From an uncultured Candidatus Saccharibacteria bacterium (GTDB lineage: Bacteria > Patescibacteriota > Minisyncoccia > Phycocordibacterales > CAIZLB01), in the NCBI GenBank assembly GCA_964607805.1, contig CAZSLF010000001.1, positions 12,811 to 76,810 on the forward strand: a stretch of 64,000 nt of DNA. Direction: 5' to 3'. The position numbers were made by a program, and so were the translations under genes. Shown here in pieces: positions 715 through 56,029 of this stretch. How positions within the stretch are numbered: position 1 is the first letter of the stretch; every line of letters begins with the position of its first letter. The notes under the pieces were generated by a model, which did not search any database, had not been told where the DNA came from, and was given only the letters and a program-made list of their open reading frames with translations.

Positions 715-840
715 GGCGGGCCCACGAGGACTCGGTCACGAGTTAAAATTGCTGCGCAATTTTCCTCTCGACCCCGCCTCCTCGTTTTGCTTCGTCGCTT
801 TGCTCCTCTTTGCAAAGCTTCGTCCGGCTTTCTCGTCCCA
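715..840 (-). repeat. tRNA-linked structured element, copy E1 (downstream of tRNA-Trp)
   Basis: Shares ordered blocks with 3036-3147. In RNA sense these are GAGAAAGCCGGAC, a variable hairpin (797-803/812-818), GGAGGCGGGGUCG, and the hairpin AAAAUUGC/GCAAUUUU (745-752/756-763). It ends with a 19-nt copy (716-734) of the tRNA-Trp 3' end (898-916). Confidence 0.7.
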
Positions 841-858
841 GTATTGCCCTTAGGTAAT

Positions 859-893
859 TAAAAAAGCCCATGCATTGCATGAGCTTTTTTAAT
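859..893 (-). terminator. Hairpin flanked by A and T runs, directly after tRNA-Trp (possibly bidirectional)
   Basis: ttaaaaaagcccatgca/ttgcatgagcttttttaa is an inverted repeat with a T-run on either strand. Confidence 0.6.
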
Positions 894-898
894 TACTG

Positions 899-970
899 CG
901 GGCCCACGAGGACTCGAACCTCGAACTGCGCGTTTGGAGTGCGATGTTTTACCATTGAAACTATAGGCCC
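899..970 (-). tRNA. tRNA-Trp (anticodon CCA)
   Basis: Hand-folded cloverleaf. Acceptor GGGCCTA/TGGGCCC, D arm GTTT..AAAC, anticodon loop CTCCAAA, T arm CGAGG-TTCGAGT-CCTCG, discriminator G. The anticodon stem has only 3 Watson-Crick pairs (TCGCA/CGCGC). No encoded CCA. Confidence 0.8.
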
Positions 971-1152
971 AAATTTTCCGCTCTTCTGCCCTGATGCCAG
1001 GTATTCTTCTCTGTCCTCATTCCCCATTTTCCAAACTTAAAAACGTGTCTACTATAGCAATTTAAAGCCTAAAAATCAAAAATACCGAGCCTTTTTGAGC
1101 TATCGGTACTTTTGTGCTTTTCGCCAGTTTTTTATGCCTCTAAGGCTTAAAA

Positions 1153-1305
1153 TTACTTAGATTCAGTAAAATCTACTCGCTTTCTAAGTTTAGCGCTGTA
1201 TTTTTTAAGGACGATTTTCTTCTCTACCTTCTTCTTATTCTTTCGAGTTCGGTAGATTTCGCCGGTCTTCTTATTGACCAATTTAATTAGTTTATCCTGT
1301 GCCAT
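1153..1305 (-). CDS. rpmG: 50S ribosomal protein L33
   Basis: A 50-aa ORF below the ORF-track cutoff: MAQDKLIKLVNKKTGEIYRTRKNKKKVEKKIVLKKYSAKLRKRVDFTESK. This fits the typical L33 pattern (..Y.T.KNK......L.KY......V.F.E.K). A hairpin plus T-run lies downstream at about 1081-1115. Confidence 0.85.
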   Translation of the reverse strand: MAQDKLIKLVNKKTGEIYRTRKNKKKVEKKIVLKKYSAKLRKRVDFTESK

Positions 1306-1350
1306 GGTGGCTATACTACCATATTTAGTTGTTTTGGCAAATGATAGTTA

Positions 1351-1381
1351 TTGACAAAATGCAAAATTGTGACACTATACA
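1351..1381 (+). promoter_or_regulatory. Sigma70-like promoter for the 1447 cassette
   Basis: TTGACA at 1351-1356 and an A/T-rich -10 candidate (ACTATA/TATACA) 17-19 nt downstream. Confidence 0.45.
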
Positions 1382-1446
1382 AATGGCTCTTTTCAACCAT
1401 TCAGAACGCTAGACACATTCAGTAAACTCTAACCACATATACGATC

Positions 1447-1812
1447 ATGAATACTATCTACGGAATCTATCAAGTGCTAGGTGGAGACCAGGCTACCCCT
1501 AAAATGCCCGGGTGGATGATTCTCTTCTTCATTTGCCTACTTATTAGCACGAGCAGACTATGCGCTGCGTGCTTCCTGGATGCAGCATCGATCAAACGAA
1601 ACACTTGGCTAACACGTTCGCTGGCCTTGCCAGCAGCGCTCGGGTTTATGTCATCTCTCTGTATACACGGGCTTGCTGCCTCGATGTTCCTTACATTGGT
1701 GTTGCTTCCGAGTGCAGGCGCTCCAATTGGAGCAGTCTTGCCGACATGTCTGTTTGGGATATTGAGCAATGCTATCTTCGTATCCAGGTTCTTTCGAGGC
1801 GTTTACGCCTAA
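1447..1812 (+). CDS. Hypothetical small membrane protein (GC-richer cassette)
   Basis: 121-aa ORF with several hydrophobic segments, bracketed by a promoter (1351) and a terminator (1839). Overlapping ORFs in other frames probably reflect local GC richness. See findings for the coding-versus-RNA ambiguity. Confidence 0.5.
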   Translation: MNTIYGIYQVLGGDQATPKMPGWMILFFICLLISTSRLCAACFLDAASIKRNTWLTRSLALPAALGFMSSLCIHGLAASMFLTLVLLPSAGAPIGAVLPTCLFGILSNAIFVSRFFRGVYA

Positions 1813-1838
1813 CTTATTACTCATTTTCATGAGTGCGA

Positions 1839-1873
1839 GCTCCGACCTGATTGGTTGGGGCTTTTTTATTTTT
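1839..1873 (+). terminator. Rho-independent terminator
   Basis: Stem gctccgacc (1839-1847) / ggttggggc (1853-1861) followed by ttttttattttt. Confidence 0.7.
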
Positions 1874-1882
1874 AAAATTTTC

Positions 1883-1910
1883 TTGACATACCCTACTTCC
1901 AATATATAGT
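1883..1910 (+). promoter_or_regulatory. Sigma70-like promoter for the 1948 gene
   Basis: TTGACA at 1883-1888, 16-nt spacer, TATAGT at 1905-1910. Confidence 0.45.
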
Positions 1911-1947
1911 TGCAGGAAAGTTCATAAACAACTATCCCCCCATTTTC

Positions 1948-2265
1948 ATGAAAAATCTAAAAGGAAATAAAAAGAGAGGAACGCACTCGACGGCTATTGA
2001 ATTAGCGGAGCGACTGGTTTTGATGATTCAGAAGAATACTTTGATAACAGGAGTTCAACTTGGGCAGATTAAGACTGGTGCGAAGGCAAATGGAATTCAT
2101 CGCATAAAAATTGAGAAGACAAGTATTGGATTTAAGTTGCAAATTAAGGAAGGACAAGCGGTGCAGATTGTGTATATTTATACGAAAGATTTTGAGGAAG
2201 TTTCTAAGGTGATTTCTGAAGCAGCGAAGGAGTTGCATGCGGAAGTTGTTTTGAGGAATGGGTAG
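1948..2265 (+). CDS. Hypothetical protein
   Basis: 105-aa ORF with its own promoter-like signal. No recognisable motif. Confidence 0.55.
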   Translation: MKNLKGNKKRGTHSTAIELAERLVLMIQKNTLITGVQLGQIKTGAKANGIHRIKIEKTSIGFKLQIKEGQAVQIVYIYTKDFEEVSKVISEAAKELHAEVVLRNG

Positions 2266-2402
2266 GTGTGGGATTTTAGATTAATGGCAACCCTTGAGCT
2301 CTTGCCAAATATACAATTCAATGTTACTTTCTCTGAGGTTAAGGTTCCCTACACCTCACAAAGTATGGCTGAGCTATCAGTGAATAGCTACCAGAACATC
2401 CA

Positions 2403-2693
2403 ATGGCTAATGAAATTGTGGCTGCAAATCGTATGCAGAAAAAAGAAATACTGAAGCGTCTCAAAGAGCTGCAGGTTGGTACCGTCGTTCGATTCCAAGG
2501 AACGTCATACGAGCAAGCGATCACCAGCGAAGAGTGTCAATTCTACATGATCTACGCGATTCAGCCTGCGCCGGCTGCCGGAAGAGTACGACTCGTCTCG
2601 CTTGACGGCAAATTGGCTATCGAGCGCGATGATTCGCACTTGGTGCACGCTCACAATGTCATGTTTCAAATCGAACCGTGCGCCAGTGAGTGA
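2403..2693 (+). CDS. Hypothetical protein (GC-richer cassette)
   Basis: 96-aa ORF followed by a strong terminator at 2713-2737. No recognisable motif. Confidence 0.55.
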   Translation: MANEIVAANRMQKKEILKRLKELQVGTVVRFQGTSYEQAITSEECQFYMIYAIQPAPAAGRVRLVSLDGKLAIERDDSHLVHAHNVMFQIEPCASE

Positions 2694-2712
2694 AAATGGC
2701 TATGCCATACGG

Positions 2713-2737
2713 GACCCCAAAGGTTGGGGTCTTTTTT
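2713..2737 (+). terminator. Rho-independent terminator
   Basis: GACCCCAA (2713-2720) / TTGGGGTC (2724-2731) followed by TTTTTT. Confidence 0.8.
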
Positions 2738-2744
2738 GTTATCC

Positions 2745-3020
2745 TTATATTCCAGCAAAATAAGTTACATAAACAGCAATAACAAAAAGAAAAATAGCAA
2801 ACACCAGAGGAAACCATAGAAAATACATAAATATTTTATGGTTATATTTTATGGCTATTAACATAAACCAGATAATTGTACCGAACACTAAAGCAAAAAA
2901 TATTGATCCGTAAATATTATTATTGTTAATATTCTTATTCAAACCAAAAATATCAGTCATATATGCGAAAGCAATGACACCAAGTGAGGCTGGTTTAATG
3001 TAGTCTAAAAATATTTTCAT
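2745..3020 (-). CDS. Small integral membrane protein
   Basis: ORF 2745..3128 trimmed to the internal start MKIFLDYIKPASLG (ATG at complement 3018-3020). The longer N-terminus would read through repeat element E2. Three hydrophobic segments; AT-rich. Confidence 0.6.
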   Translation of the reverse strand: MKIFLDYIKPASLGVIAFAYMTDIFGLNKNINNNNIYGSIFFALVFGTIIWFMLIAIKYNHKIFMYFLWFPLVFAIFLFVIAVYVTYFAGI

Positions 3021-3035
3021 GATTTTATTATATAT

Positions 3036-3147
3036 GGCGAGCAGGATTCGGTCACGCGTTAAAATTGCGATGCAATTTTCCGCGCGACCCCGCCTCCCAG
3101 ATTGCACTTCGCTTCGCTCACTGCGCAATCTGGTCCGGCTTTCTCAT
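3036..3147 (-). repeat. tRNA-linked structured element, copy E2 (downstream of tRNA-Tyr)
   Basis: Same block order as E1: GAGAAAGCCGGAC, hairpin CCAGAUUGC/GCAAUCUGG (3097-3105/3125-3133), GGAGGCGGGGUCG, and hairpin AAAAUUGC/GCAAUUUU (3061-3068/3072-3079). It ends with a 12-nt copy (3039-3050) of tRNA-Tyr T-arm sequence (3215-3226). Confidence 0.7.
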
Positions 3148-3161
3148 CAACTCAATACAGC

Positions 3162-3207
3162 AAAAAATTAAGACCTACATACTGTTGTATGTAGGTCTTA
3201 ATTTTTT
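3162..3207 (-). terminator. Long perfect hairpin with flanking A and T runs after tRNA-Tyr
   Basis: aaaaaattaagacctacata ctgt tgtatgtaggtcttaatttttt. Confidence 0.65.
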
Positions 3208-3208
3208 G

Positions 3209-3292
3209 TGCGTAGAGCAGGATTCGAACCTGCGTAGCCCAATGGGCGATTGATTTACAGTCAATTGCGATTGACCACTCCGCCATCTACGC
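3209..3292 (-). tRNA. tRNA-Tyr (anticodon GTA), long variable arm
   Basis: Hand fold. Acceptor GCGTAGA/TCTACGC, anticodon arm ATTGA-CTGTAAA-TCAAT, variable arm CGCCCATTGGGCTAC, T arm GCAGG-TTCGAAT-CCTGC, discriminator A. No encoded CCA. Confidence 0.9.
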
Positions 3293-3394
3293 ATAACCGA
3301 CTAAGTAGGCAAATCGGAGCAATTAGCTTTCGAATAACCCACCGGCCTCGGAACGGAAGCTATCCTAACATTTTTTTAAGCCACTGAAAAGGCT

Positions 3395-4087
3395 TTAAAT
3401 TTTAGTAAGTGAACCTCCTTCAAACTTAACTTTTATTGTTGATTCTGTATTCCACTCTGAATTGTCGAGGAAATTCATTCCAAAAAGAGTAATTATATTA
3501 TTACTGATTGAAGCGCTTTTAATTGTTGTGCGTAGGCCATTTCCAGCATAGAAATTATTGTTTGGCATAACAAGCGTAGCTTTTCCACTGGCTGAATTTA
3601 TTACAACATCCAAATTATATGAGCAATTGGGATCACAATATGTAGTTTCAAGAATTGCGTCCTGCAAACCGTCGCTATTCAAATCACCTCGAGCTAAAAC
3701 TTTTGCAGTTTGATATGTTCCTGATTTGTTTGATGCTTGCTTATTGCTAAAATTACCAGTACTTACCAATCTCATAGCCTGGTTAGCCTCAAGATTGGAA
3801 TTAAAAGCCTCGATAATTTTACTATCAACCATAACTCCAGCTGTAACAATTGTTTTATTTGCCGGAGAGGCTGGTTCGGTAGCTAATTTCGTAGAATCTA
3901 TTTTAGCGTCAACAACCTTGGAATTTGTAGAAGATGAATTTAATGTTGTAGTAGATGCGTTTGAATTTTCTTCTACACTATTATCAATATTAATATTAGC
4001 TGCACCTCTTGAATTAACTGCGAAGATAGTACCCACAACTAGCAGCAAGAACACTATTACTAATATAATTATATTTTGTTTTTTCAT
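3395..4087 (-). CDS. Secreted or membrane-anchored hypothetical protein
   Basis: 230-aa ORF. N-terminal hydrophobic anchor MKKQNIIILVIVFLLLVVGTIFAV and a Ser/Thr/Asn-rich linker. It carries a DxNxDGxxD-like segment (GDLNSDGLQDA). Confidence 0.7.
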   Translation of the reverse strand: MKKQNIIILVIVFLLLVVGTIFAVNSRGAANINIDNSVEENSNASTTTLNSSSTNSKVVDAKIDSTKLATEPASPANKTIVTAGVMVDSKIIEAFNSNLEANQAMRLVSTGNFSNKQASNKSGTYQTAKVLARGDLNSDGLQDAILETTYCDPNCSYNLDVVINSASGKATLVMPNNNFYAGNGLRTTIKSASISNNIITLFGMNFLDNSEWNTESTIKVKFEGGSLTKI

Positions 4088-4118
4088 TTTTGATGATTTA
4101 CTTATTTATTCAATTACT

Positions 4119-7100
4119 TTATCGCACTTTTGAGGTTTTTGGTTTTGAATTTGTCTTGACTACATCAAGGTTGTCAATATTGCTGTCTGAGTCATTGTCA
4201 ATATTATTTTCATCTTCACTTGGATTATTTGTTGCACCAGAGTTTGCGCCAATATTTTGGTTTCCACTAGCGTTGCCGTTGCCATGACTAATTAACTTTT
4301 TACCTTTCTTAACTTCGAAAATAAATTCAACTGGACTCTGAGATCCACCCTCTCGAGAGTAGCTAGCTCGAAGATCTGCAAATGTATTAACGCCAAATTC
4401 CATAGACTTGATAGGTGACTTAATTTTGCCAGAATTTTCGGCTGATGATTTGTCGCCTTTTCCATCGGAACCCTTACCCTCCTTTCCATTCTTCCCTTCC
4501 TTTCCGTTTTTCTTCACGCTAACAGAAACTGTCCCACCCTTAAGAACTCCTTCAGAAATTATGAGGGATGCCATCGGTGTCAAAATTTTGTTTTGAATCA
4601 AACGCTTGAGAGGACGTGCACCATAGTGAGGATCGTATCCTTCCTTCGCAAGATATGTAAGCACGTCTTCAGAAAGTTCAAGTGTAATTTCTTTTTCACT
4701 AAGTCTTGCTCGAACTTTTTGCAACTCAATATCAACAATATTTCTAATTGCTTCAGGACTTAGGATATCAAAGAGAACAATTTCATCGATTCGGTTCAAG
4801 AATTCAGGACGGAAATGATCTCGCAAAGCCTCCATAACTTTCTGCTTTGAGTTTTCATAGTTTTCTTTGTCGCGAGCGTTGCCATCTACACCCTTCAACT
4901 CATCTGCATCGGCGCCGACATTAGCATTGAAGCCAATTGATTGCATACGATCGATAAATTGTGCACCAATATTAGAAGTCATTATGATAATGGTGTTCTT
5001 GAAATTAATTGTTCGTCCCTTTGAATCTGTAAGACGACCGTTGTCCAAAACCTGAAGAAGGATATTGAAAATCTCCGGATGAGCTTTCTCAATTTCATCG
5101 AAAAGAATTACTGAATATGGTCTATGTTTTACAGTTTCAGTTAGAGATCCGCTGTCCTCATGGCCAACATATCCTGGTGGGGCACCAATTATCTTAGATA
5201 CTGCATGTTTTTCCATATACTCAGACATATCTACACGAATTAGTGCCTTCTCATCGTCGAACATGAATTTCGCAAGAGATTTTGTAAGCTCAGTTTTTCC
5301 AACTCCAGTTGGTCCAAGGAATATGAAAGATCCGATTGGTCTATTTGGATCGTTAATACCAGCACGTGATCGCTTAATTGTATCTGCAACTTTAGCAACT
5401 GCAGCATCTTGTCCAAGAATTGATTTCTTTAGATCTTCTTCAATTCGTGCCAACTTCTGAACCTCTTCTTCGAGCATCCGAGTAACTGGAATTCCAGTCC
5501 ATCGCGCAACAATTGTTGCAATATCATGCTCTGTAATTTCTTCTTTCAAAATTCTTCTTGAACTTTGTAGTTTTTTAAGTCTCTTTGTTTTGTTTTCCAA
5601 ATCTTTTTCAAGAGCAGGCAATTTTACATATCGAATTTCCGCAGCTTTTGATAAATCGGCATGTGCCTCCGCCCGATCTGCATCTAATCGCAAAGTCTCT
5701 AATTGCTTTTTGATATTTTTAATATCTGAAAGAGTTTCCTTTTCATTTATCCACTTAGCTTCTACTTCTGCGGTCTTCTGCTTAAGATCTGCAATTTGAG
5801 TCTCGATTTCTTTAATTCGAGTCTTTGTATTTTTATTTGTCTCAGACTCTTTCTTAAGCGCTTCACGCTCAATTTCAAGACGCATAACTTTTCGATGTAC
5901 ATCTTCAAGCTCTGGTGGTTTGTTTTCAAGTGCAATTTTAAGAGAAGATGCTGCTTCGTCGATCAAGTCCACTGCCTTATCTGGCAAAAATCTATCGCTA
6001 ATATATCGACTAGACAAAGAAACCGCTGCAATTATCGCATCGTCTGTAATTCGAACACCGTGATATAGCTCATATTTTTCTTTAAGTCCTCGCAAAATTG
6101 CTACAGCATCTTCAGTTGAAGGTTCTTGAACGTATACTGGTTGAAATCGTCGCTGTAGCGCTGGATCCTTTTCAATATGTTTCTGATATTCCTTTAGAGT
6201 TGTTGCACCAATTGCACGTAACTCGCCACGGGCTAACGCAGGCTTTAGCATATTTGAAGCATCGAGTGATCCTTCTGCAGCACCAGCACCTACAATTGTA
6301 TGAATTTCATCGATAAATAGAATAACTTTACCATCCGACTTCTCAATTTCTTTTAAAATATTCTTCAAACGCTCCTCAAATTCTCCACGATATTTAGTTC
6401 CAGCAATTAAAATTCCAAGATCGAGAGAAACAAGCTCTTTTTCTTTAAGAGATTCAGGAATATCACCCATTGCAATACGATTCGCCAATCCTTCTGCAAT
6501 TGCAGTCTTTCCAACACCTGCTTCACCAATTAATATTGGATTATTTTTAGTTCTTCGAGAAAGAATCTGAATTACACGATTAATTTCTGAATCACGACCG
6601 ATAACAGGATCTAATTTATTTTCACGAGCAAGAGCAGTAAGATTGCGAGTATATTTGACAATGGCCTTCATCTTTTTACTCCCCGTATTTTCAGCAGTTG
6701 GCTTTGCCGCTTTCAATTCAGAAATAGTTTCAGCAATTGCGCCCCGCTCCAATTTAAATTTTTGAGATAAAAGCTCACGCCCCGAGCTCGCAACGTCAAA
6801 GAATGCCAAGAACATATGTTCCACTGATACAAAATCATCTTTCAAAGTAGCCGCAACACGCGCCGATGTTTCAATAATCTGAGCAAGCTCAGGTGTAAGA
6901 TATAACTGGTATGAAGGTGACAAAGTCTGTCCGCCTTCACCTGTCTCAATAGCCTCCAAAACAGTGTCTGTGAGTAAAATAGTATCCACCTCAAGCTTAT
7001 CAAGCACAGAAAGCACCAAACTATCCTCCTGAACTAGCAAAGCAGTCAAAAGATGCAGAGGATTGACGTTGTTCTGTCCCCTTTCTATGGCTAATTCATG

Positions 7101-7154
7101 GGCTTTTTTAATCGCTTCTTTAGCTTTTGTCGTAAAATGGCTTAGTGGTGGCAT
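4119..7154 (-). CDS. clpB: ATP-dependent chaperone ClpB with a long low-complexity C-terminal extension
   Basis: Clp N-domain, NBD1 Walker A GEAGVGKT and Walker B ILFIDEIH, a long coiled-coil middle domain, NBD2 GPTGVGKT / [10 protein letters not shown], and sensor-2 GARPLKR. At 1011 aa it is about 150 aa longer than typical ClpB. Confidence 0.95.
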
Positions 7155-12435: not shown

Positions 12436-12756
12436 ATGGTAAAAGGATATAAAGACGAAAAAATTGAACATATAATTAAACAACTCGCTTCTGAGTTTCT
12501 TTCTCGTGAATCAAATCGACAATCTCTCGTAACTGTTACCGATGTTATCTTCGGATACCGCTCAAAATCAGCGAAAATTTTGATTTCTGTTATGCCCGAT
12601 CATAAAGCTGAAGCCGCTCTTGATTTTGCTCAAAGAAAGCGAGGCGAACTCCGAGAATATCTTAAAGAGAAGAGTAAATTGTCTATAATCCCCTTTCTAA
12701 GTATCGAACTTGATATCGGCGAGAAGAATCGCCAGAACGTTGATAAGCTTATTTAA
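12436..12756 (+). CDS. rbfA: Ribosome-binding factor A
   Basis: 106 aa, immediately after infB. KH-like pattern (VTVTDV...SKSAKILISV...LREYL...PFLSIELD). Confidence 0.75.
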   Translation: MVKGYKDEKIEHIIKQLASEFLSRESNRQSLVTVTDVIFGYRSKSAKILISVMPDHKAEAALDFAQRKRGELREYLKEKSKLSIIPFLSIELDIGEKNRQNVDKLI

Positions 12757-13455: not shown

Positions 13456-14127
13456 ATGGTGTATAATTACCCCATGGCTAAAAAAGAGACTCTAAAGGCT
13501 GTTTTATATGTTTTGGCAGGGGTGATCATTGCCCTATTAATTTTCACTTTCTCTGGCATGGGTGAAAATAAAAAAGAAGTTTTGGATAATGAACCAAAGG
13601 ATACAATCGCAACAACAACTGATTCATCTAAAATTTGGGATGCGAGTTCAATCGCTAAAATCCGTGCTGCAGTAGGTGAGACATTCTTAGACATAAAAAC
13701 AGAGCAAAGCGAAAAAATTTCAATATATAAAAAGGCAGATATTACTGGCGATGGAATTGATGAAGCACTTGTTTCTCTAGGATCTGGTGGCGCTTATACT
13801 GGATATTATGCTCTCATGCAAGTTGATCCAAAAGATAAAACAAATACAAAAATTGTTTCTGCGAGATTTAAAACTGCTGAAGGAAAGATTGAAGATGTAA
13901 TGTTTGTCGAAGGAACTTCTGTTTCGCACGGTATGTCAGTCGAATTGGCCCCTTCAAAGCAAGCAATTTACGCTGAAAGCTGGCAAATTGATCCAATAAA
14001 TCCTGACACTGTTTCTTGTCAGATTGAAGCATATAAATGGAATAAAAATTCTGGGATTTTTGAGTTCAATGATGCGCTGGGTAAGAGTGCTACTGAGAGT
14101 TATTGTGAGGGGATTTTTGCGAGGTAA
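13456..14127 (+). CDS. Membrane-anchored or secreted hypothetical protein
   Basis: 223-aa ORF with an N-terminal TM helix (VLYVLAGVIIALLIFTF) and a DITGDGIDEA segment. The start could instead be MAKKETL at 13474. Confidence 0.7.
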   Translation: MVYNYPMAKKETLKAVLYVLAGVIIALLIFTFSGMGENKKEVLDNEPKDTIATTTDSSKIWDASSIAKIRAAVGETFLDIKTEQSEKISIYKKADITGDGIDEALVSLGSGGAYTGYYALMQVDPKDKTNTKIVSARFKTAEGKIEDVMFVEGTSVSHGMSVELAPSKQAIYAESWQIDPINPDTVSCQIEAYKWNKNSGIFEFNDALGKSATESYCEGIFAR

Positions 14128-14133
14128 ATTCAT

Positions 14134-14268
14134 GTGGTCAGGAATAATTTGTTCGTCGTCACTCACAAATTTTCCCGACCCTGACTCGCCTCTTTTTTCT
14201 ACTGAAAAAAGAGGGCTCCGTCTCGCACATGTATCGAGAAATTCAAAGCAGTTTGAATTTCTCACTCA
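14134..14268 (-). repeat. tRNA-linked structured element, copy E3 (downstream of tRNA-Lys)
   Basis: RNA sense, in order: tRNA-proximal hairpin (14226-14268); GGAGCC box; hairpin CCUCUUUUUU/AAAAAAGAGG (14189-14198/14205-14214); GAGGCGAG; closing helix GGUCG/UGACC (14176-14180/14136-14140); and hairpin GGAAAAUUUG/CAAAUU-A-UUCC (14166-14175/14141-14151). It aligns closely to E4. Confidence 0.65.
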
Positions 14269-14270
14269 TG

Positions 14271-14343
14271 TGCGCCTAGTAGGATTCGAACCTACGACCG
14301 TTCGCTTAAGAGGCGACTGCTCTACCAACTGAGCTATAAGCGC
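14271..14343 (-). tRNA. tRNA-Lys (anticodon CTT)
   Basis: Acceptor GCGCTTA/TAGGCGC, D arm GCTC..GAGC, anticodon loop CTCTTAA, T arm GTAGG-TTCGAAT-CCTAC, discriminator A. No CCA. Confidence 0.9.
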
Positions 14344-14491
14344 ATATATTTAATGCAGTCTCTATGGTATCAAAATCTGGCCATTATTCAACCTTTAATT
14401 AGACAATGGCAAAAACGACGCTGGAAAAATAATTAAATTCATGTATTATGATGGAGTTCAGATGTATCTGGACAGAAAACGAATATTAGCT

Positions 14492-49191: not shown

Positions 49192-49263
49192 GGCCCTATC
49201 GTCTATCGGTTAGGACATCACGTTTTCAATGTGAGAAGCAGGGTTCGACTCCCTGTAGGGTCA
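49192..49263 (+). tRNA. tRNA-Glu (anticodon TTC)
   Basis: Acceptor GGCCCTA/TAGGGTC, anticodon arm TCACG-TTTTCAA-TGTGA, T arm CAGGG-TTCGACT-CCCTG, discriminator A. No CCA. Confidence 0.88.
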
Positions 49264-49309
49264 CACAAATAAAAAACACCAACCTGCGTTGGTGTTTTTT
49301 ATTTGTGTG
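49264..49309 (+). terminator. Long perfect hairpin with a T-run after tRNA-Glu
   Basis: cacacaaataaaaaacaccaac (49262-49283) / gttggtgttttttatttgtgtg (49288-49309). It overlaps the last 2 nt of the tRNA. Confidence 0.7.
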
Positions 49310-49311
49310 AC

Positions 49312-49402
49312 GGCCGGAGCCATGTTTTTTCAGCAGAAAAAACGGGCGAGGCGGTGTCGCGGAAATTTCTGAGCGACGGCGAGGAAATTATCTGTGACCA
49401 CA
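49312..49402 (+). repeat. tRNA-linked structured element, copy E4 (downstream of tRNA-Glu)
   Basis: GGCCGGAGCC box, hairpin UUUUUU/AAAAAA (49325-49330/49337-49342), GGGCGAGGCGG, helix GUCGC/GUGAC (49356-49360/49394-49398), and hairpin GGAAAUUUC/GAAAUU-A-UCU (49361-49369/49384-49393). It is nearly colinear with E3. Confidence 0.65.
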
Positions 49403-53863: not shown

Positions 53864-53929
53864 GCGCCAGCCATACACGTGCCCGGTTTCTAACCGAGTC
53901 ACGACATGGCTGGTGCTTTTCTATTTCCT
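53864..53929 (+). repeat. 66-bp direct repeat, copy 1 (also the terminator hairpin of the 53033 gene)
   Basis: gcgccagccatacacgtgcccggtttctaaccgagtcacgacatggctggtgcttttctatttcct is identical to 54539-54604 except for one base. The outer stem is GCGCCAGCCAT/ATGGCTGGTGC, followed by TTTTC. Confidence 0.85.
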
Positions 53930-54074: not shown

Positions 54075-54527
54075 ATGATACCCACTTTGCCCGCCGGACA
54101 TCCAGGTAATCGTCCAAGCATTAAACGACTGCACACTGCTATTTACGAAAAATACCCCTGGCTGAATTTTCACTTCCCCGAAAGGGACAAGGAAAATTTC
54201 GATGAAGTAGTCTTGGATATTTCGCATCTCGACGATGAGCCATATTCAAGCGACTATAATTCAGAAAACATCTTCATTCTCGACGCTTCAGGAAAAACTA
54301 TCCACACCGTTGGTTACCTACCAAACTTTGCTTGGTGGAAAATCTGGCTCTGGTTAAGACAGGTCAATCATAGAGAGACTATCGGCGAGGCACTACTTCA
54401 CAAAAAATGTGTCAATGCCGCATACGTTCTTTCTGACGACGGTCTTCGTACAATTACGATATTCTCGCCGCGTGCCCGTGAGTCTCTGCATGAACTTGCC
54501 ACAAGGCATAGTCTAGACGTGCTTTGA
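54075..54527 (+). CDS. Hypothetical protein (GC-richer cassette bracketed by 66-bp repeats)
   Basis: 150-aa ORF with its own promoter and repeat-terminator. No motif recognised. Confidence 0.6.
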   Translation: MIPTLPAGHPGNRPSIKRLHTAIYEKYPWLNFHFPERDKENFDEVVLDISHLDDEPYSSDYNSENIFILDASGKTIHTVGYLPNFAWWKIWLWLRQVNHRETIGEALLHKKCVNAAYVLSDDGLRTITIFSPRARESLHELATRHSLDVL

Positions 54528-54538
54528 GGTCGTCTTTC

Positions 54539-54604
54539 GCGCCAGCCATACACGTGCCCGGTTTCTAACCGAGTCACGACATGGCTGGCGCTTTTCTATT
54601 TCCT
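54539..54604 (+). repeat. 66-bp direct repeat, copy 2 (terminator hairpin of the 54075 gene)
   Basis: 65/66 identical to 53864-53929 (T to C in the stem, GGCTGGTGC versus GGCTGGCGC). Confidence 0.85.
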
Positions 54605-54640
54605 GGTCTATATTCTATACATATATATGAGCGAAATAAC

Positions 54641-56029
54641 ATGAACGAAATTCACGCAGCAACACAAACAAAAAAACCAAATATCCTTGCAATAGAAACA
54701 AGCTGTGACGAAACAGCTATTTCGTTTTTATCTGGTCTTGAGACTAAGTCGCACCACGTTCACACCCAGGCCGCCATGCATGCAGAATACGGCGGAGTTT
54801 TTCCAAATCTTGCAAAGCGTGAGCATACGAAAAATTTGGTTCCCGTTCTTTCTTTAGTTTTTAAAGATATTTTTGATAATGAAATTTGGAGCGCAGCTTC
54901 AAATATTCACCCAGATGCAGATGTTCAAAAAAATAATTCTAATGAAAACTCGTCAAATAATGTATCCGCCGAAACTCAAAAAATTGTAACCGAACTCCTC
55001 GCTCGTGAAGGAAATCTCGGCGCTGACCTACTAGCATATATAGGATTAATTCCTCATCAAACTTTTCTAAAGATAAAATCAAATTTAGATGCAATTGCTG
55101 TCACATACGGACCAGGACTTGAACCTGCTCTTTGGGTAGGAATTTCATTTGCCAAATCCTTAGCTGTAATTTTCGACAAACCCCTCATGCCAATTAATCA
55201 CATGGAGGGACATATCGCGTCTGTTCTCGCAATAGCAAACGAGTTGAAGACGACCGAAGACAATAAATCTGAGACCAAAACAGAAACCCAAATCGAATTC
55301 CCTGCCATCGCACTTTTAATTTCTGGAGGACATACGGAATTGGTGCTTGTGAATTCTTGGCATCATTATCAAATTATTGGGCAAACTGTAGACGATGCTG
55401 TCGGCGAAGCATATGACAAGGTTGCACGCGTGCTTGGACTTCCATATCCTGGCGGGCCTGAGATTTCAAAACTTGCTGAGGCATGGCGCTCACAAAAACC
55501 TACAGAAAATTCAGAAGAATCAGGGAAGGTGGAAAAAATATTCAATCTCCCCCGCCCTATGATACACAGCAAGGATCTGAACTTTTCATTTTCAGGATTA
55601 AAAACTGCGGTGCTTTATGCCGTGAGAGACAGACTGCGAGATAAACTTAAAGAAAAACCGACAGAGGATAATAGTTCGGACAACACACAATTAAACGATA
55701 CAGAAAAAATTGCTCTTGCAGGAGAATTCGAAGAGGCTGTTATCGAAGTTCTCATTTCTAAAACTAAAAAAGCTATTTTGGAAAATGGCGCTCGCACGCT
55801 TCTAATCGGCGGTGGCGTGATTGCAAATACTGAAATTAGAAAAGCATTTGGAGAGTTAACAGACGAACTTGCCATATCACTTTTCCTCCCAGAAAAAAAT
55901 CTTTCTACTGACAATGCGACGATGATCGGAATTGTTGCTGCGCTTCAATATATTGGCGGCAAAAAAGGATTTGATCCAATGACGCCTGATTTTAATAATG
56001 TGAAGGCTGAGGGTAATTTGGTTTTGTAA
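54641..56029 (+). CDS. tsaD: tRNA N6-adenosine threonylcarbamoyltransferase TsaD (Kae1/YgjD family) with insertions
   Basis: ILAIETSCDETAIS, INHMEGHI, ISGGHTELV, DDAVGEAYDKVARVLGLPYPGGPEI, IGGGVIAN. The ORF is trimmed to MNEIHAAT because the upstream codons overlap the repeat/terminator. Confidence 0.88.
   Translation: MNEIHAATQTKKPNILAIETSCDETAISFLSGLETKSHHVHTQAAMHAEYGGVFPNLAKREHTKNLVPVLSLVFKDIFDNEIWSAASNIHPDADVQKNNSNENSSNNVSAETQKIVTELLAREGNLGADLLAYIGLIPHQTFLKIKSNLDAIAVTYGPGLEPALWVGISFAKSLAVIFDKPLMPINHMEGHIASVLAIANELKTTEDNKSETKTETQIEFPAIALLISGGHTELVLVNSWHHYQIIGQTVDDAVGEAYDKVARVLGLPYPGGPEISKLAEAWRSQKPTENSEESGKVEKIFNLPRPMIHSKDLNFSFSGLKTAVLYAVRDRLRDKLKEKPTEDNSSDNTQLNDTEKIALAGEFEEAVIEVLISKTKKAILENGARTLLIGGGVIANTEIRKAFGELTDELAISLFLPEKNLSTDNATMIGIVAALQYIGGKKGFDPMTPDFNNVKAEGNLVL

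Follow-up and report, generated by a model that had tools for sequence, protein, structure and literature searches.

A small RNA-structured element behind tRNA genes of a Saccharibacteria genome, apparently from a previously undescribed family of Patescibacteria insertion elements

Why should the last nucleotides of a transfer RNA (tRNA) gene be found a second time, at the far end of a small element that lies directly behind that gene? This question is raised by a 64,000-nucleotide stretch of DNA from an uncultured Candidatus Saccharibacteria bacterium (contig CAZSLF010000001.1, positions 12,811 to 76,810; hereafter the window), in which four such elements, E1 to E4, follow the genes for tRNA-Trp, tRNA-Tyr, tRNA-Lys and tRNA-Glu. 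The answer that we favor, with a probability of roughly 0.6, is that E1-E4 are copies of a small, non-coding, RNA-structured insertion element, benign and selfish, that preserves its host gene. Together with their relatives in Patescibacteria they apparently make up a family of such elements that has not been described before.

Duplicated tRNA ends and an empty site

A first-pass annotation of the window had pointed to two duplications, and both are exact. The 19-mer GCGGGCCCACGAGGACTCG is found at exactly two places, 716-734 and 898-916, with none expected in shuffled sequence even when two mismatches are allowed, and the 12-mer GAGCAGGATTCG has exactly two copies, 3039-3050 and 3215-3226, where again chance predicts none. 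ARAGORN and Rfam place the second member of each pair within tRNA-Trp (898/899-970, minus strand) and tRNA-Tyr (3208/3209-3292, minus strand). Read in the RNA sense, both repeats have C56 of the T-loop as their first base, the common start that had been claimed for them. As had also been noted, the tRNA-Trp gene and its copy in E1 differ in what follows: the distal copy reads ..GGGCCCG-CCA-AUU and the gene ..GGGCCCG-CAG, or G73-C-C-A as against G73-C-A-G. The E2 match had been called the weaker case, which it is, but T-loop conservation alone is insufficient to account for it: among the 123 tRNAs of the fetched loci, only the window tRNA-Tyr and its orthologue in locus L120 match the E2 tail from C56 over 12 nucleotides (nt), and the best non-cognate tRNA reaches 11 nt. 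The statement that E3 and E4 lack a copy was wrong, as their tails repeat 7 nt at tRNA-Lys and 6 nt at tRNA-Glu, in both cases into the trailer (Table 1).

The direction of the E1 duplication is indicated by an empty site. Locus L204 of a relative, found through a homologue of the open reading frame (ORF) downstream of E1, carries tRNA-Trp without an element, in the form ..GGUUCGAGUCCUGGUGGGCCCG-CCA-AUUCGAGCUA. In a pairwise alignment with this empty site, ...GGGCCCGC/CAATTCGAGCTA, the window is longer by 182 nt, which lie exactly at the slash and are made up of a 163-nt unit (735-897) and the 19-nt duplication. The trailer behind the E1 distal copy is identical to the trailer behind the intact L204 tRNA-Trp. 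The empty site and the exact 182-nt difference indicate that tRNA-Trp originally ended in the distal 19-mer, together with the CCA and trailer behind it, and CCA follows the distal copy because that copy is the original gene end. Judged from this alignment, 898-916 would be the new copy that keeps tRNA-Trp whole. The same pattern, proximal C-A/U and distal C-C-A, recurs in locus L036 and twice in L068. E1 is thus very probably an insertion with target duplication. The earlier suggestion of an attL/attR-like scar therefore survives in substance, with an empty site, a 163-nt insert and a 19-nt duplication, but without an integrase: neither the 163-nt insert nor the 20 candidate ORFs screened in the 64-kb window hold a tyrosine or serine recombinase, and the search for integrase, IS110-like, TnpB-like and reverse transcriptase (RT) genes among these ORFs was likewise negative, so that "att" describes the layout and not a demonstrated mechanism. 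Three exact-protein look-ups were uninformative on polymorphism; the L33 protein led to L120, whose contig ends inside tRNA-Trp, the 154-amino-acid (aa) ORF to the identical strain L202, and the 230-aa ORF to a short contig.

Table 1. Parts of the four elements and their neighboring tRNA genes, in window coordinates (CM, score with covariance model R1)
Feature	Position	Strand	Remarks
tRNA-Trp(CCA) gene	898..970	-	last 19 nt (898-916, C56 to C74) are the proximal repeat copy; ARAGORN, Rfam, exact repeat
E1 inserted unit, 163 nt	735..897	-	not in L204 empty tRNA-Trp site; CM 59.5 bits; fold z -4.2
E1 terminator-like hairpin	854..896	-	
E1 spacer and 5′ arm (GGGAC-GAG-AAAG)	828..853	-	
E1 core (CGGAC ... 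GUGAC)	735..826	-	
E1 distal copy of tRNA-Trp C56-C74	716..734	-	then CA (715-714) and trailer AUUCGAGCUA
tRNA-Tyr(GTA) gene	3208..3292	-	proximal 12-nt copy at 3215-3226
E2 unit	3051..3207	-	CM 63.9 bits; diverged orthologue behind tRNA-Tyr in L120
E2 hairpin	3161..3207	-	
E2 spacer and 5′ arm (..UUGAGUUGAUGAGAAAGC)	3138..3160	-	
E2 core	3051..3137	-	
E2 tail	3039..3050	-	tRNA-Tyr from C56 for 12 nt (CGAAUCCUGCUC), then decay to GCCA
E3 unit, behind tRNA-Lys(CTT) (14270-14343)	14137..14269	-	CM 100 bits
E3 hairpin and 5′ arm	14221..14269	-	
E3 core	14137..14220	-	
E3 tail CACAUGA	14130..14136	-	copies tRNA-Lys C72-A73 and first trailer bases; 7-nt prefix match at -3
E4 unit, behind tRNA-Glu(TTC) (49192-49264)	49265..49398	+	CM 106.9 bits
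E4 hairpin and 5′ arm	49265..49314	+	
E4 core	49315..49398	+	
E4 tail CACAAA	49399..49404	+	copies sequence starting at tRNA-Glu 3′ end; 6-nt prefix match at -1

Members, targets and fold of the family

A degenerate pattern matching E1-E4 led to at least 119 loci in species-representative genomes, about 68 of which are true relatives. The covariance model R1 was built from 64 copies, on an alignment of all 64 that was used instead of a MAFFT alignment of E1-E4 alone, which misaligned the two subtypes. With filters off, the model finds exactly four copies in the window; among the matches listed there are 93 in 68 Patescibacteria loci, with a maximum of three per 8 kb, and it finds none in 52 non-Patescibacteria chance loci. 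Nearly all true relatives are metagenome-assembled genomes of Patescibacteria, including Saccharibacteria, Paceibacteria, Lloyd-, Zambryski-, Kaiser-, Yonath-, Nomura- and Taylorbacteria. A few are labelled only "bacterium", and one 5.4-kb contig (L059) is labelled Nitrospira. A viral origin was rejected, as a pattern scan of IMG/VR gave a single chance match that the covariance model did not accept, and the model found no copy in viral contigs. At the gathering threshold, no Rfam 15 family covers the element in the window or in 36 family loci, where the search matched only tRNA, transfer-messenger RNA (tmRNA), 16S and, elsewhere, one LOOT RNA. At E<=10, E1 and one canonical copy gave no match on the element, and full-text literature searches found no description of the family.

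The targets are tRNA genes, tmRNA genes and the 3′ end of topA, with the element just 3′ of the gene and oriented like it. Most copies have, on the same strand, a tRNA or tmRNA whose end lies 33-85 nt upstream; in three of them it is tmRNA. All four window elements lie in the tRNA sense, immediately behind a long terminator-like hairpin. The first-pass annotation had proposed a search for further copies ending in other tRNA 3′ segments, and these are abundant: in more than 30 independent family members the tail begins exactly at C56 of the adjoining tRNA or tmRNA. About 20 copies match the adjacent tRNA from C56 over 18-27 nt (Ser, Thr, Arg, Val, Tyr, Glu, Ile, Ala, Leu, Cys and Trp) and about 13 others over 8-14 nt, and tails of this type cover more than 15 tRNA species in addition to tmRNA. 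A second subtype, to which E3 and E4 belong, has its right junction at C72/A73 and a copy of just 4-7 nt, CACA... In L108, at least 27 nt of pure trailer are duplicated. The core ends in an invariant GAC/C, and both junctions precede identical sequence. In the T-loop subtype the two junctions exactly bracket the 3′ strand of the acceptor/T-arm helix (C56 to C74), which we regard as a hint that a tRNA-shaped nucleic acid is recognized.

Several loci depart from this layout. At L072 (621-738) and L054 (1598-1717) a 3′-end-type element abuts the antisense of the tRNA-Ile(gat) 5′ end, where the acceptor 5′ strand, reverse-complemented, resembles an acceptor 3′ end. These antisense cases suggest that the target is recognized as sequence and not as a transcript or RNA 3′ end. 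An rRNA operon in L105 (4434-6763) has two elements in its spacer, arranged as 16S, tRNA-Ala, element, tRNA-Ile, element, so that both elements should belong to the pre-rRNA transcript. At L095 (1190-1350) a tRNA-Glu-like 5′ part, comprising acceptor, D arm, anticodon arm with CUC and T-stem 5′ strand, runs straight into an element with no proximal 3′ copy and a decayed tail; from its sequence, this looks like a tRNA pseudogene carrying the element in its T-loop. In the window, the 11-mer ACATGAATTTA at 14125-14135, in the E3 tail, recurs at 14434-14444 on the minus strand, about 90 nt upstream of tRNA-Lys, and so brackets tRNA and element; other 3′-end-type copies have no such repeat, and we treat it as chance.

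The topA copies extend the empty-site comparison to a protein-coding gene. Among 80 metagenomic topA 3′ ends that were fetched, the element is directly behind the gene in 6, and 74 are empty. Together with L204, these ends run counter to a fixed duplication without empty sites, which the first-pass annotation had named as an outcome that would refute its reading. At occupied loci topA ends in ..MMEGTKTIPERCS..HK.. and a stop codon, followed by the hairpin, the 5′ arm, the core and a second copy of the last ~20 codons, which begins at C-A-A-A-A-A-C. A KTIPERC motif is encoded twice in exactly those occupied loci whose distal copy is intact. The nearest relatives of occupied loci are empty (L189 vs L192, 83%; L140 vs L141, 82%; L014 vs L170, 84%). 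In L140 the distal copy has the synonymous states of the empty L141 and the syntenic relA/spoT gene next to it, and the proximal copy differs; the distal copy thus looks resident, and the proximal copy was apparently imported with the unit. In L003, L034, L073 and L082, as well as in L140 and L189, the last ~20 codons are doubled with an open distal frame and mostly synonymous differences, amounting in L073 to ~13 synonymous and 1-2 non-synonymous differences. Distal copies from different genomes are under equal constraint, and lineage-specific residues are common to both copies within one genome. In L010, L089 and L014 the distal copy is frameshifted, truncated or lost. A template and variable repeat, as in diversity-generating retroelements, was rejected as an explanation of the paired copies, as their differences are not adenine-specific.

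Other copies show how the family changes over time. L096 holds two identical tandem units, and in L036 one tRNA is followed by a T-loop-type copy and then by a 3′-end-type copy, the target of the latter being the displaced tRNA end. In L068, two 100%-identical units follow tRNA-Ser(cga) and tRNA-Ser(tga), each with 19 nt of its own tRNA; the identity spans from 2-4 nt after the tRNA end to ..GUGACCGAAUC, and the 5′ arm common to both fits the tga tRNA better. Two origins of this pair are conceivable: the unit was recently copied to a new target, which was duplicated afresh, or gene conversion made the interiors identical. Comparison of the window (1150-4090) with L120 shows an identical L33 protein and a gene order that is conserved apart from several indels of small ORFs; YbjQ is located in L120 between tRNA-Tyr and the 230-aa gene, and in the window at 12436-12756. 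Between these two loci tRNA-Tyr and the hairpin are nearly identical, and the element is strongly diverged.

The 64-copy alignment and RNAalifold provide the anatomy of the unit, which consists of a variable hairpin, a 5′ arm, a conserved three-way-junction core of ~60-90 nt and the target-copy tail. From 5′ to 3′, the fold comprises the 5′ arm, a junction AAA(G), helix P1a, an internal loop, P1b, RGG, P2 and the tail. P1a pairs G-N-C with G-K-C, and its N:K pair covaries (CG 34, AU 28, GU 1, UG 1). The internal loop sets GGA opposite GA, probably as tandem sheared G.A pairs, and P1b is a variable hairpin. In P2, GUCGCGGAAAUUU... pairs with ...AAAUU(A)UCYGUGAC, with an invariant G.U and covarying upper pairs. 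Double compensatory changes are found in 17 of 24 predicted pairs, and E1-E4 fold with z-scores of -3.5 to -5 against shuffles. Because the G.U pairs would become C.A on the opposite strand, they mark the sense strand of the upstream gene as the one that folds.

The tail appears to be part of this fold. The first 5-14 nt of the distal copy would form, with the 5′ arm, a closing helix, P0, while the remainder of the copy decays. Duplexes between an element's own 5′ flank and tail average -14.6 kcal/mol as against -10.5 with swapped partners (p = 4e-9), a conservative control because all T-loop-derived tails have CGAAUCC in common; for E1, whose distal copy is also the 3′ strand of P0, the value is -19.2 kcal/mol. 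The junction-proximal pairs of P0 are constrained, with ..U-Y-G (or G-A-G) before AAAG opposite GAC/C-R-A. The universal C56-R57-A58 of the T-loop satisfies this constraint, which would explain why all T-loop copies share their start base. Relative to L095, a G-to-U change in the L012 tail restores a pair with the arm. Old copies decay outside P0: the identical stretch of E2, 12 nt, stops about where the predicted P0 pairing stops, and the L120 orthologue keeps 9 nt.

Further signals lie in and around the elements. A scan found no clear promoter for the element itself. A promoter-like site at 3027-3055 (minus strand), with the core GTGACC as -35 and TATAAT as -10 17 nt downstream, lies just upstream of a small membrane-protein ORF that starts at 3020, and the E2 tail region may double as its promoter. 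Many hairpins before or after elements carry the loop motif AAACUGCUUU (or ..CUGC..) on unrelated stems, for example the E3 hairpin (14225-14269) and those in L036, L054, L072, L028, L097, L111, L095, L031 and L064; it may be an extra conserved module or a general terminator feature of Patescibacteria.

Two features of the window are separate from the element. A 66-nt repeat (53864-53929 and 54539-54604, 98% identity, 675 nt apart) flanks a 150-aa ORF (54075-54527) with no Pfam match, and its second copy overlaps the start of a TsaD-family ORF (54581-56029). Each copy folds into a long, stable hairpin with a run of U behind it (z = -6.4) and has no relation to the tRNA-linked elements. In addition, a 1011-aa ClpB-like ORF (4119-7154, minus strand) has, in its translation, a long C-terminal extension of low complexity in which G, K, N and S abound.

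Insertion, spread and competing explanations

In the reading that we favor, the unit inserts at a gene 3′ end with direct duplication of a target segment, which extends from the right-hand junction (C56 or C72/A73, by subtype) to about the gene end. The proximal copy leaves the tRNA whole and is followed by a hairpin, often terminator-like. In E1, and apparently in the topA locus of L140, the distal copy is the displaced original 3′ end, which would be recruited as a strand of P0. T-loops may be preferred since C56-R57-A58 suits the junction requirement of P0. The element would spread among relatives by recombination through flanking gene homology, and new targets would be reached rarely. Insertion itself could be the work of a trans-acting recombinase, of replication template switching through T-loop or 3′-end microhomology, or of an RNA-mediated or RNA-guided process.

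Several observations weigh against this reading. The duplications fall at 4-7, 18-22, 27-40 and >60 nt, and no sequence is conserved at the left end of the unit, a combination unlike any known chemistry of transposition. Often the 5′ arm complements a particular tRNA almost perfectly over a long stretch, up to 13-14 bp, which a simple target-site duplication leaves unexplained; variable duplication length and a target-specific arm fit neither transposases nor simple att recombination. The E1 insert is non-coding, and the non-exhaustive screen of the 20 candidate ORFs found no integrase, transposase, TnpB, IS110 or RT Pfam domain. Cores from the same genome are each other's closest relatives in just 6 of 36 cases. 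The almost exclusively synonymous differences between distal and proximal topA copies imply that one copy came from a relative or that both are genuinely used; we infer that the pattern arose mainly from occupied alleles imported from related lineages, which recombined in the flanking gene homology. Finally, conservation across a whole superphylum of compact genomes argues for a host-level function.

A host-beneficial role is the substance of one alternative, which we consider unlikely. The fold would be a cis-acting RNA, co-transcribed by read-through with the tRNA, tmRNA or mRNA and serving 3′-end processing, stabilization, insulation or regulation, with the 5′ arm switching between the gene's own 3′ segment and the tail, and with selection or gene conversion keeping the tail identical. 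The constant orientation with the upstream gene and the strong covariation favor such a role, as do the compensatory change that maintains P0 and the old tails that keep only their paired part (E2, L120). Retention across Saccharibacteria, Paceibacteria and other classes, the presence in a 16S-tRNA-tRNA spacer (L105) and the three mutually complementary or identical segments that allow alternative pairing point the same way. However, occupancy is patchy between close relatives, with clean empty sites, and the duplications extend far past the paired region, in one class over >60 nt of coding sequence. A strong terminator-like hairpin also stands ahead of the fold in many loci, and tRNA, tmRNA and topA have no obvious common regulatory need. 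No consistent class of downstream gene was apparent, though no systematic survey was made; incidentally, element position appeared tied to the 3′ end of the upstream gene, with a terminator or another element often next.

Site-specific integration is a comparably improbable alternative. Here a tiny circle, composed of the unit and an attP segment matching the target 3′ end, would be integrated in trans by a tyrosine or serine integrase as a non-autonomous element like a cis-mobilizable element (CIME); crossover would take place in the T-loop, the proximal copy would be element-borne and the distal copy original. The targets and the repeat from crossover to gene end match the layout of integrated islands, reportedly exemplified by the Dehalococcoides ssrA islands, and the tandem arrays of L096 and L036, as well as the foreign-looking proximal and resident-looking distal topA copies of L140, favor it. 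Yet no integrase is found among the screened ORFs, and more than 20 target sequences would demand more than 20 specificities. The L068 units are identical and carry different target copies, though gene conversion could also yield this, and a double-stranded att site needs no RNA-type covariation with strand-specific G.U pairs. A ~185-bp circle is, moreover, very small for recombinase synapsis.

It is also tempting to speculate, at similarly long odds, that the core is a catalytic or guide RNA that mobilizes itself, with the 5′ arm selecting the target, strand exchange at N/C-R-A and perhaps a ~185-nt circle. If so, it would represent intron-like mobile RNA elements of a new class, which spare the host gene by duplicating its 3′ end. 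A related proposal, that the element acts as an intron through RNA-level strand exchange, is more doubtful still. The 5′ arm would hold either target copy beside the core, and through cleavage and ligation at N/C and GAC/C the unit would be released, perhaps in circular form, and the gene body connected with the distal copy, so that both copies would be functional 3′ ends. That both topA copies keep open frames and differ almost only synonymously speaks for this, and identical sequence after both junctions, the invariant GAC/C core end and the element placed directly in the T-loop of the L095 pseudo-tRNA-Glu, without a proximal copy, are in keeping with it. Against it stand the lack of any Rfam ribozyme or intron similarity, including group II domains 5 and 6, the tRNA tails decayed beyond P0 (E2, L120, L030), which often leave the distal copy with no usable tRNA end, and the broken distal topA copies of L010, L089 and L014.

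Least credible of all is the first-pass idea of a tRNA-like acceptor mimic or of a guide-like segment, taken here as a tail that RNase P, RNase Z or the CCA-adding enzyme would recognize, or that would direct an RNA-guided nuclease or recombinase to the tRNA locus: long-arm P0 is indeed a continuous, minihelix-like 12-14-bp helix whose 3′ strand is the acceptor and T-stem 3′ strand (L068, L080), several distal copies end in CCA (E1, L036, L068 twice) and 19-22-nt tails resemble guides in length, but CCA and trailer are simply the original gene end, the 3′-end subtype and topA copies have no tRNA-like tail, the GGCGGG said to close the mimic belongs to GGCGGGG, invariant core sequence (P1a G-K-C, then the P2 start) that is paired elsewhere and unchanged whatever the tail, the T-loop part of the tail is paired with the 5′ arm and forms no loop, a target-derived tail paired in P0 cannot serve as a guide (complementarity to the target is confined to the 5′ arm, which may or may not act as one), and neither TnpB, IscB, IS110 or Cas among the 20 screened ORFs nor a tRNA, tRNA-like structure or HEARO Rfam match on the element was found.

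If the favored reading of a selfish insertion element is correct, Patescibacteria, which make up a large share of bacterial diversity and have very small genomes, carry many copies of an unrecognized kind of genetic element. It would account for oddly duplicated tRNA ends in these genomes, and RNA catalogues would gain a phylum-wide family. It also raises a mechanistic question, namely what inserts a unit of 100-160 nt together with a 19-nt duplication whose limits are the T-loop and the CCA end. The family can be tested in cultured Saccharibacteria and in vitro, and occupied and empty alleles can be used for population studies.

Comparison with known systems

The element shares traits with several known systems. 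It fails the defining tests of integrative elements (no recombinase among the screened ORFs), non-autonomous transposons, group II introns, tRNA-like structures and guide RNAs, and we therefore treat it as an undescribed family. The closest layout is that of islands and prophages integrated at tRNA and tmRNA genes. These are alike in their targets (T-loop, extreme 3′ end, tmRNA, 3′ ends of protein genes), in the repeat from junction to gene end, in the intact host gene and original end displaced downstream, and in tandem accretion; direct target repeats flank the insert, and empty sites exist, as with integrative elements. In contrast to islands, the element is non-coding and only ~95-165 nt long, no integrase was found in the screened ORFs, one conserved family uses more than 20 targets, and the displaced copy serves as a strand of a conserved RNA helix.

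Miniature inverted-repeat transposable elements (MITEs) and other small repeats (Correia/NEMIS, RUP, REP/REPIN, Rickettsia palindromic elements) resemble it in size, in being non-coding with many copies per small genome, in stable folds when transcribed and in tolerance within or beside essential genes. A MITE was rejected, as the element has no terminal inverted repeats of its own: the pairing arms are target-specific and change with the target tRNA, the left end is unconserved, and the duplication is long and of no fixed length. In addition, its core is a three-way junction with covariation across the superphylum and not a simple palindrome, and most copies within one genome are old and have diverged.

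Class C group II introns are alike in their sense position right behind a terminator-like hairpin, and P2 superficially resembles group II domain V/VI, with an invariant G.U beside CGC and a bulged A 9 nt from the AC 3′ end. A group II intron was rejected because neither RF00029 nor domains D1-D4 match at the gathering threshold or at E<=10 and the core spans 60-90 nt. The element, about one fifth to one twentieth the size of a group II intron, has a target duplication, which such introns do not make, and comes with no intron-encoded protein or RT.

With tRNA-like structures and minihelices (viral tRNA-like structures, mascRNA, the tRNA-like domain of tmRNA) the element shares a long-arm closing helix that contains a real acceptor and T-stem 3′ strand and maybe a CCA end. 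Unlike these it has no T-loop, whose bases are paired, and its other subtypes have no tRNA-derived tail. A tRNA-like mimic is not supported, as the models match genuine tRNAs only and T-loop bases 56-60 are paired in P0. A guide RNA (omega RNA, bridge RNA or CRISPR RNA) is likewise not supported, with no effector in the 20 window ORFs, no HEARO or CRISPR-repeat Rfam match and a paired tail.

A further parallel is provided by the transposed non-canonical tRNA introns of Thermoproteales, related short sequences that occur at the T-loop and other positions of many tRNA genes. They interrupt the tRNA, and an archaeal endonuclease excises them at bulge-helix-bulge motifs. The element differs in that it leaves the tRNA intact, with a duplicated 3′ segment behind it.

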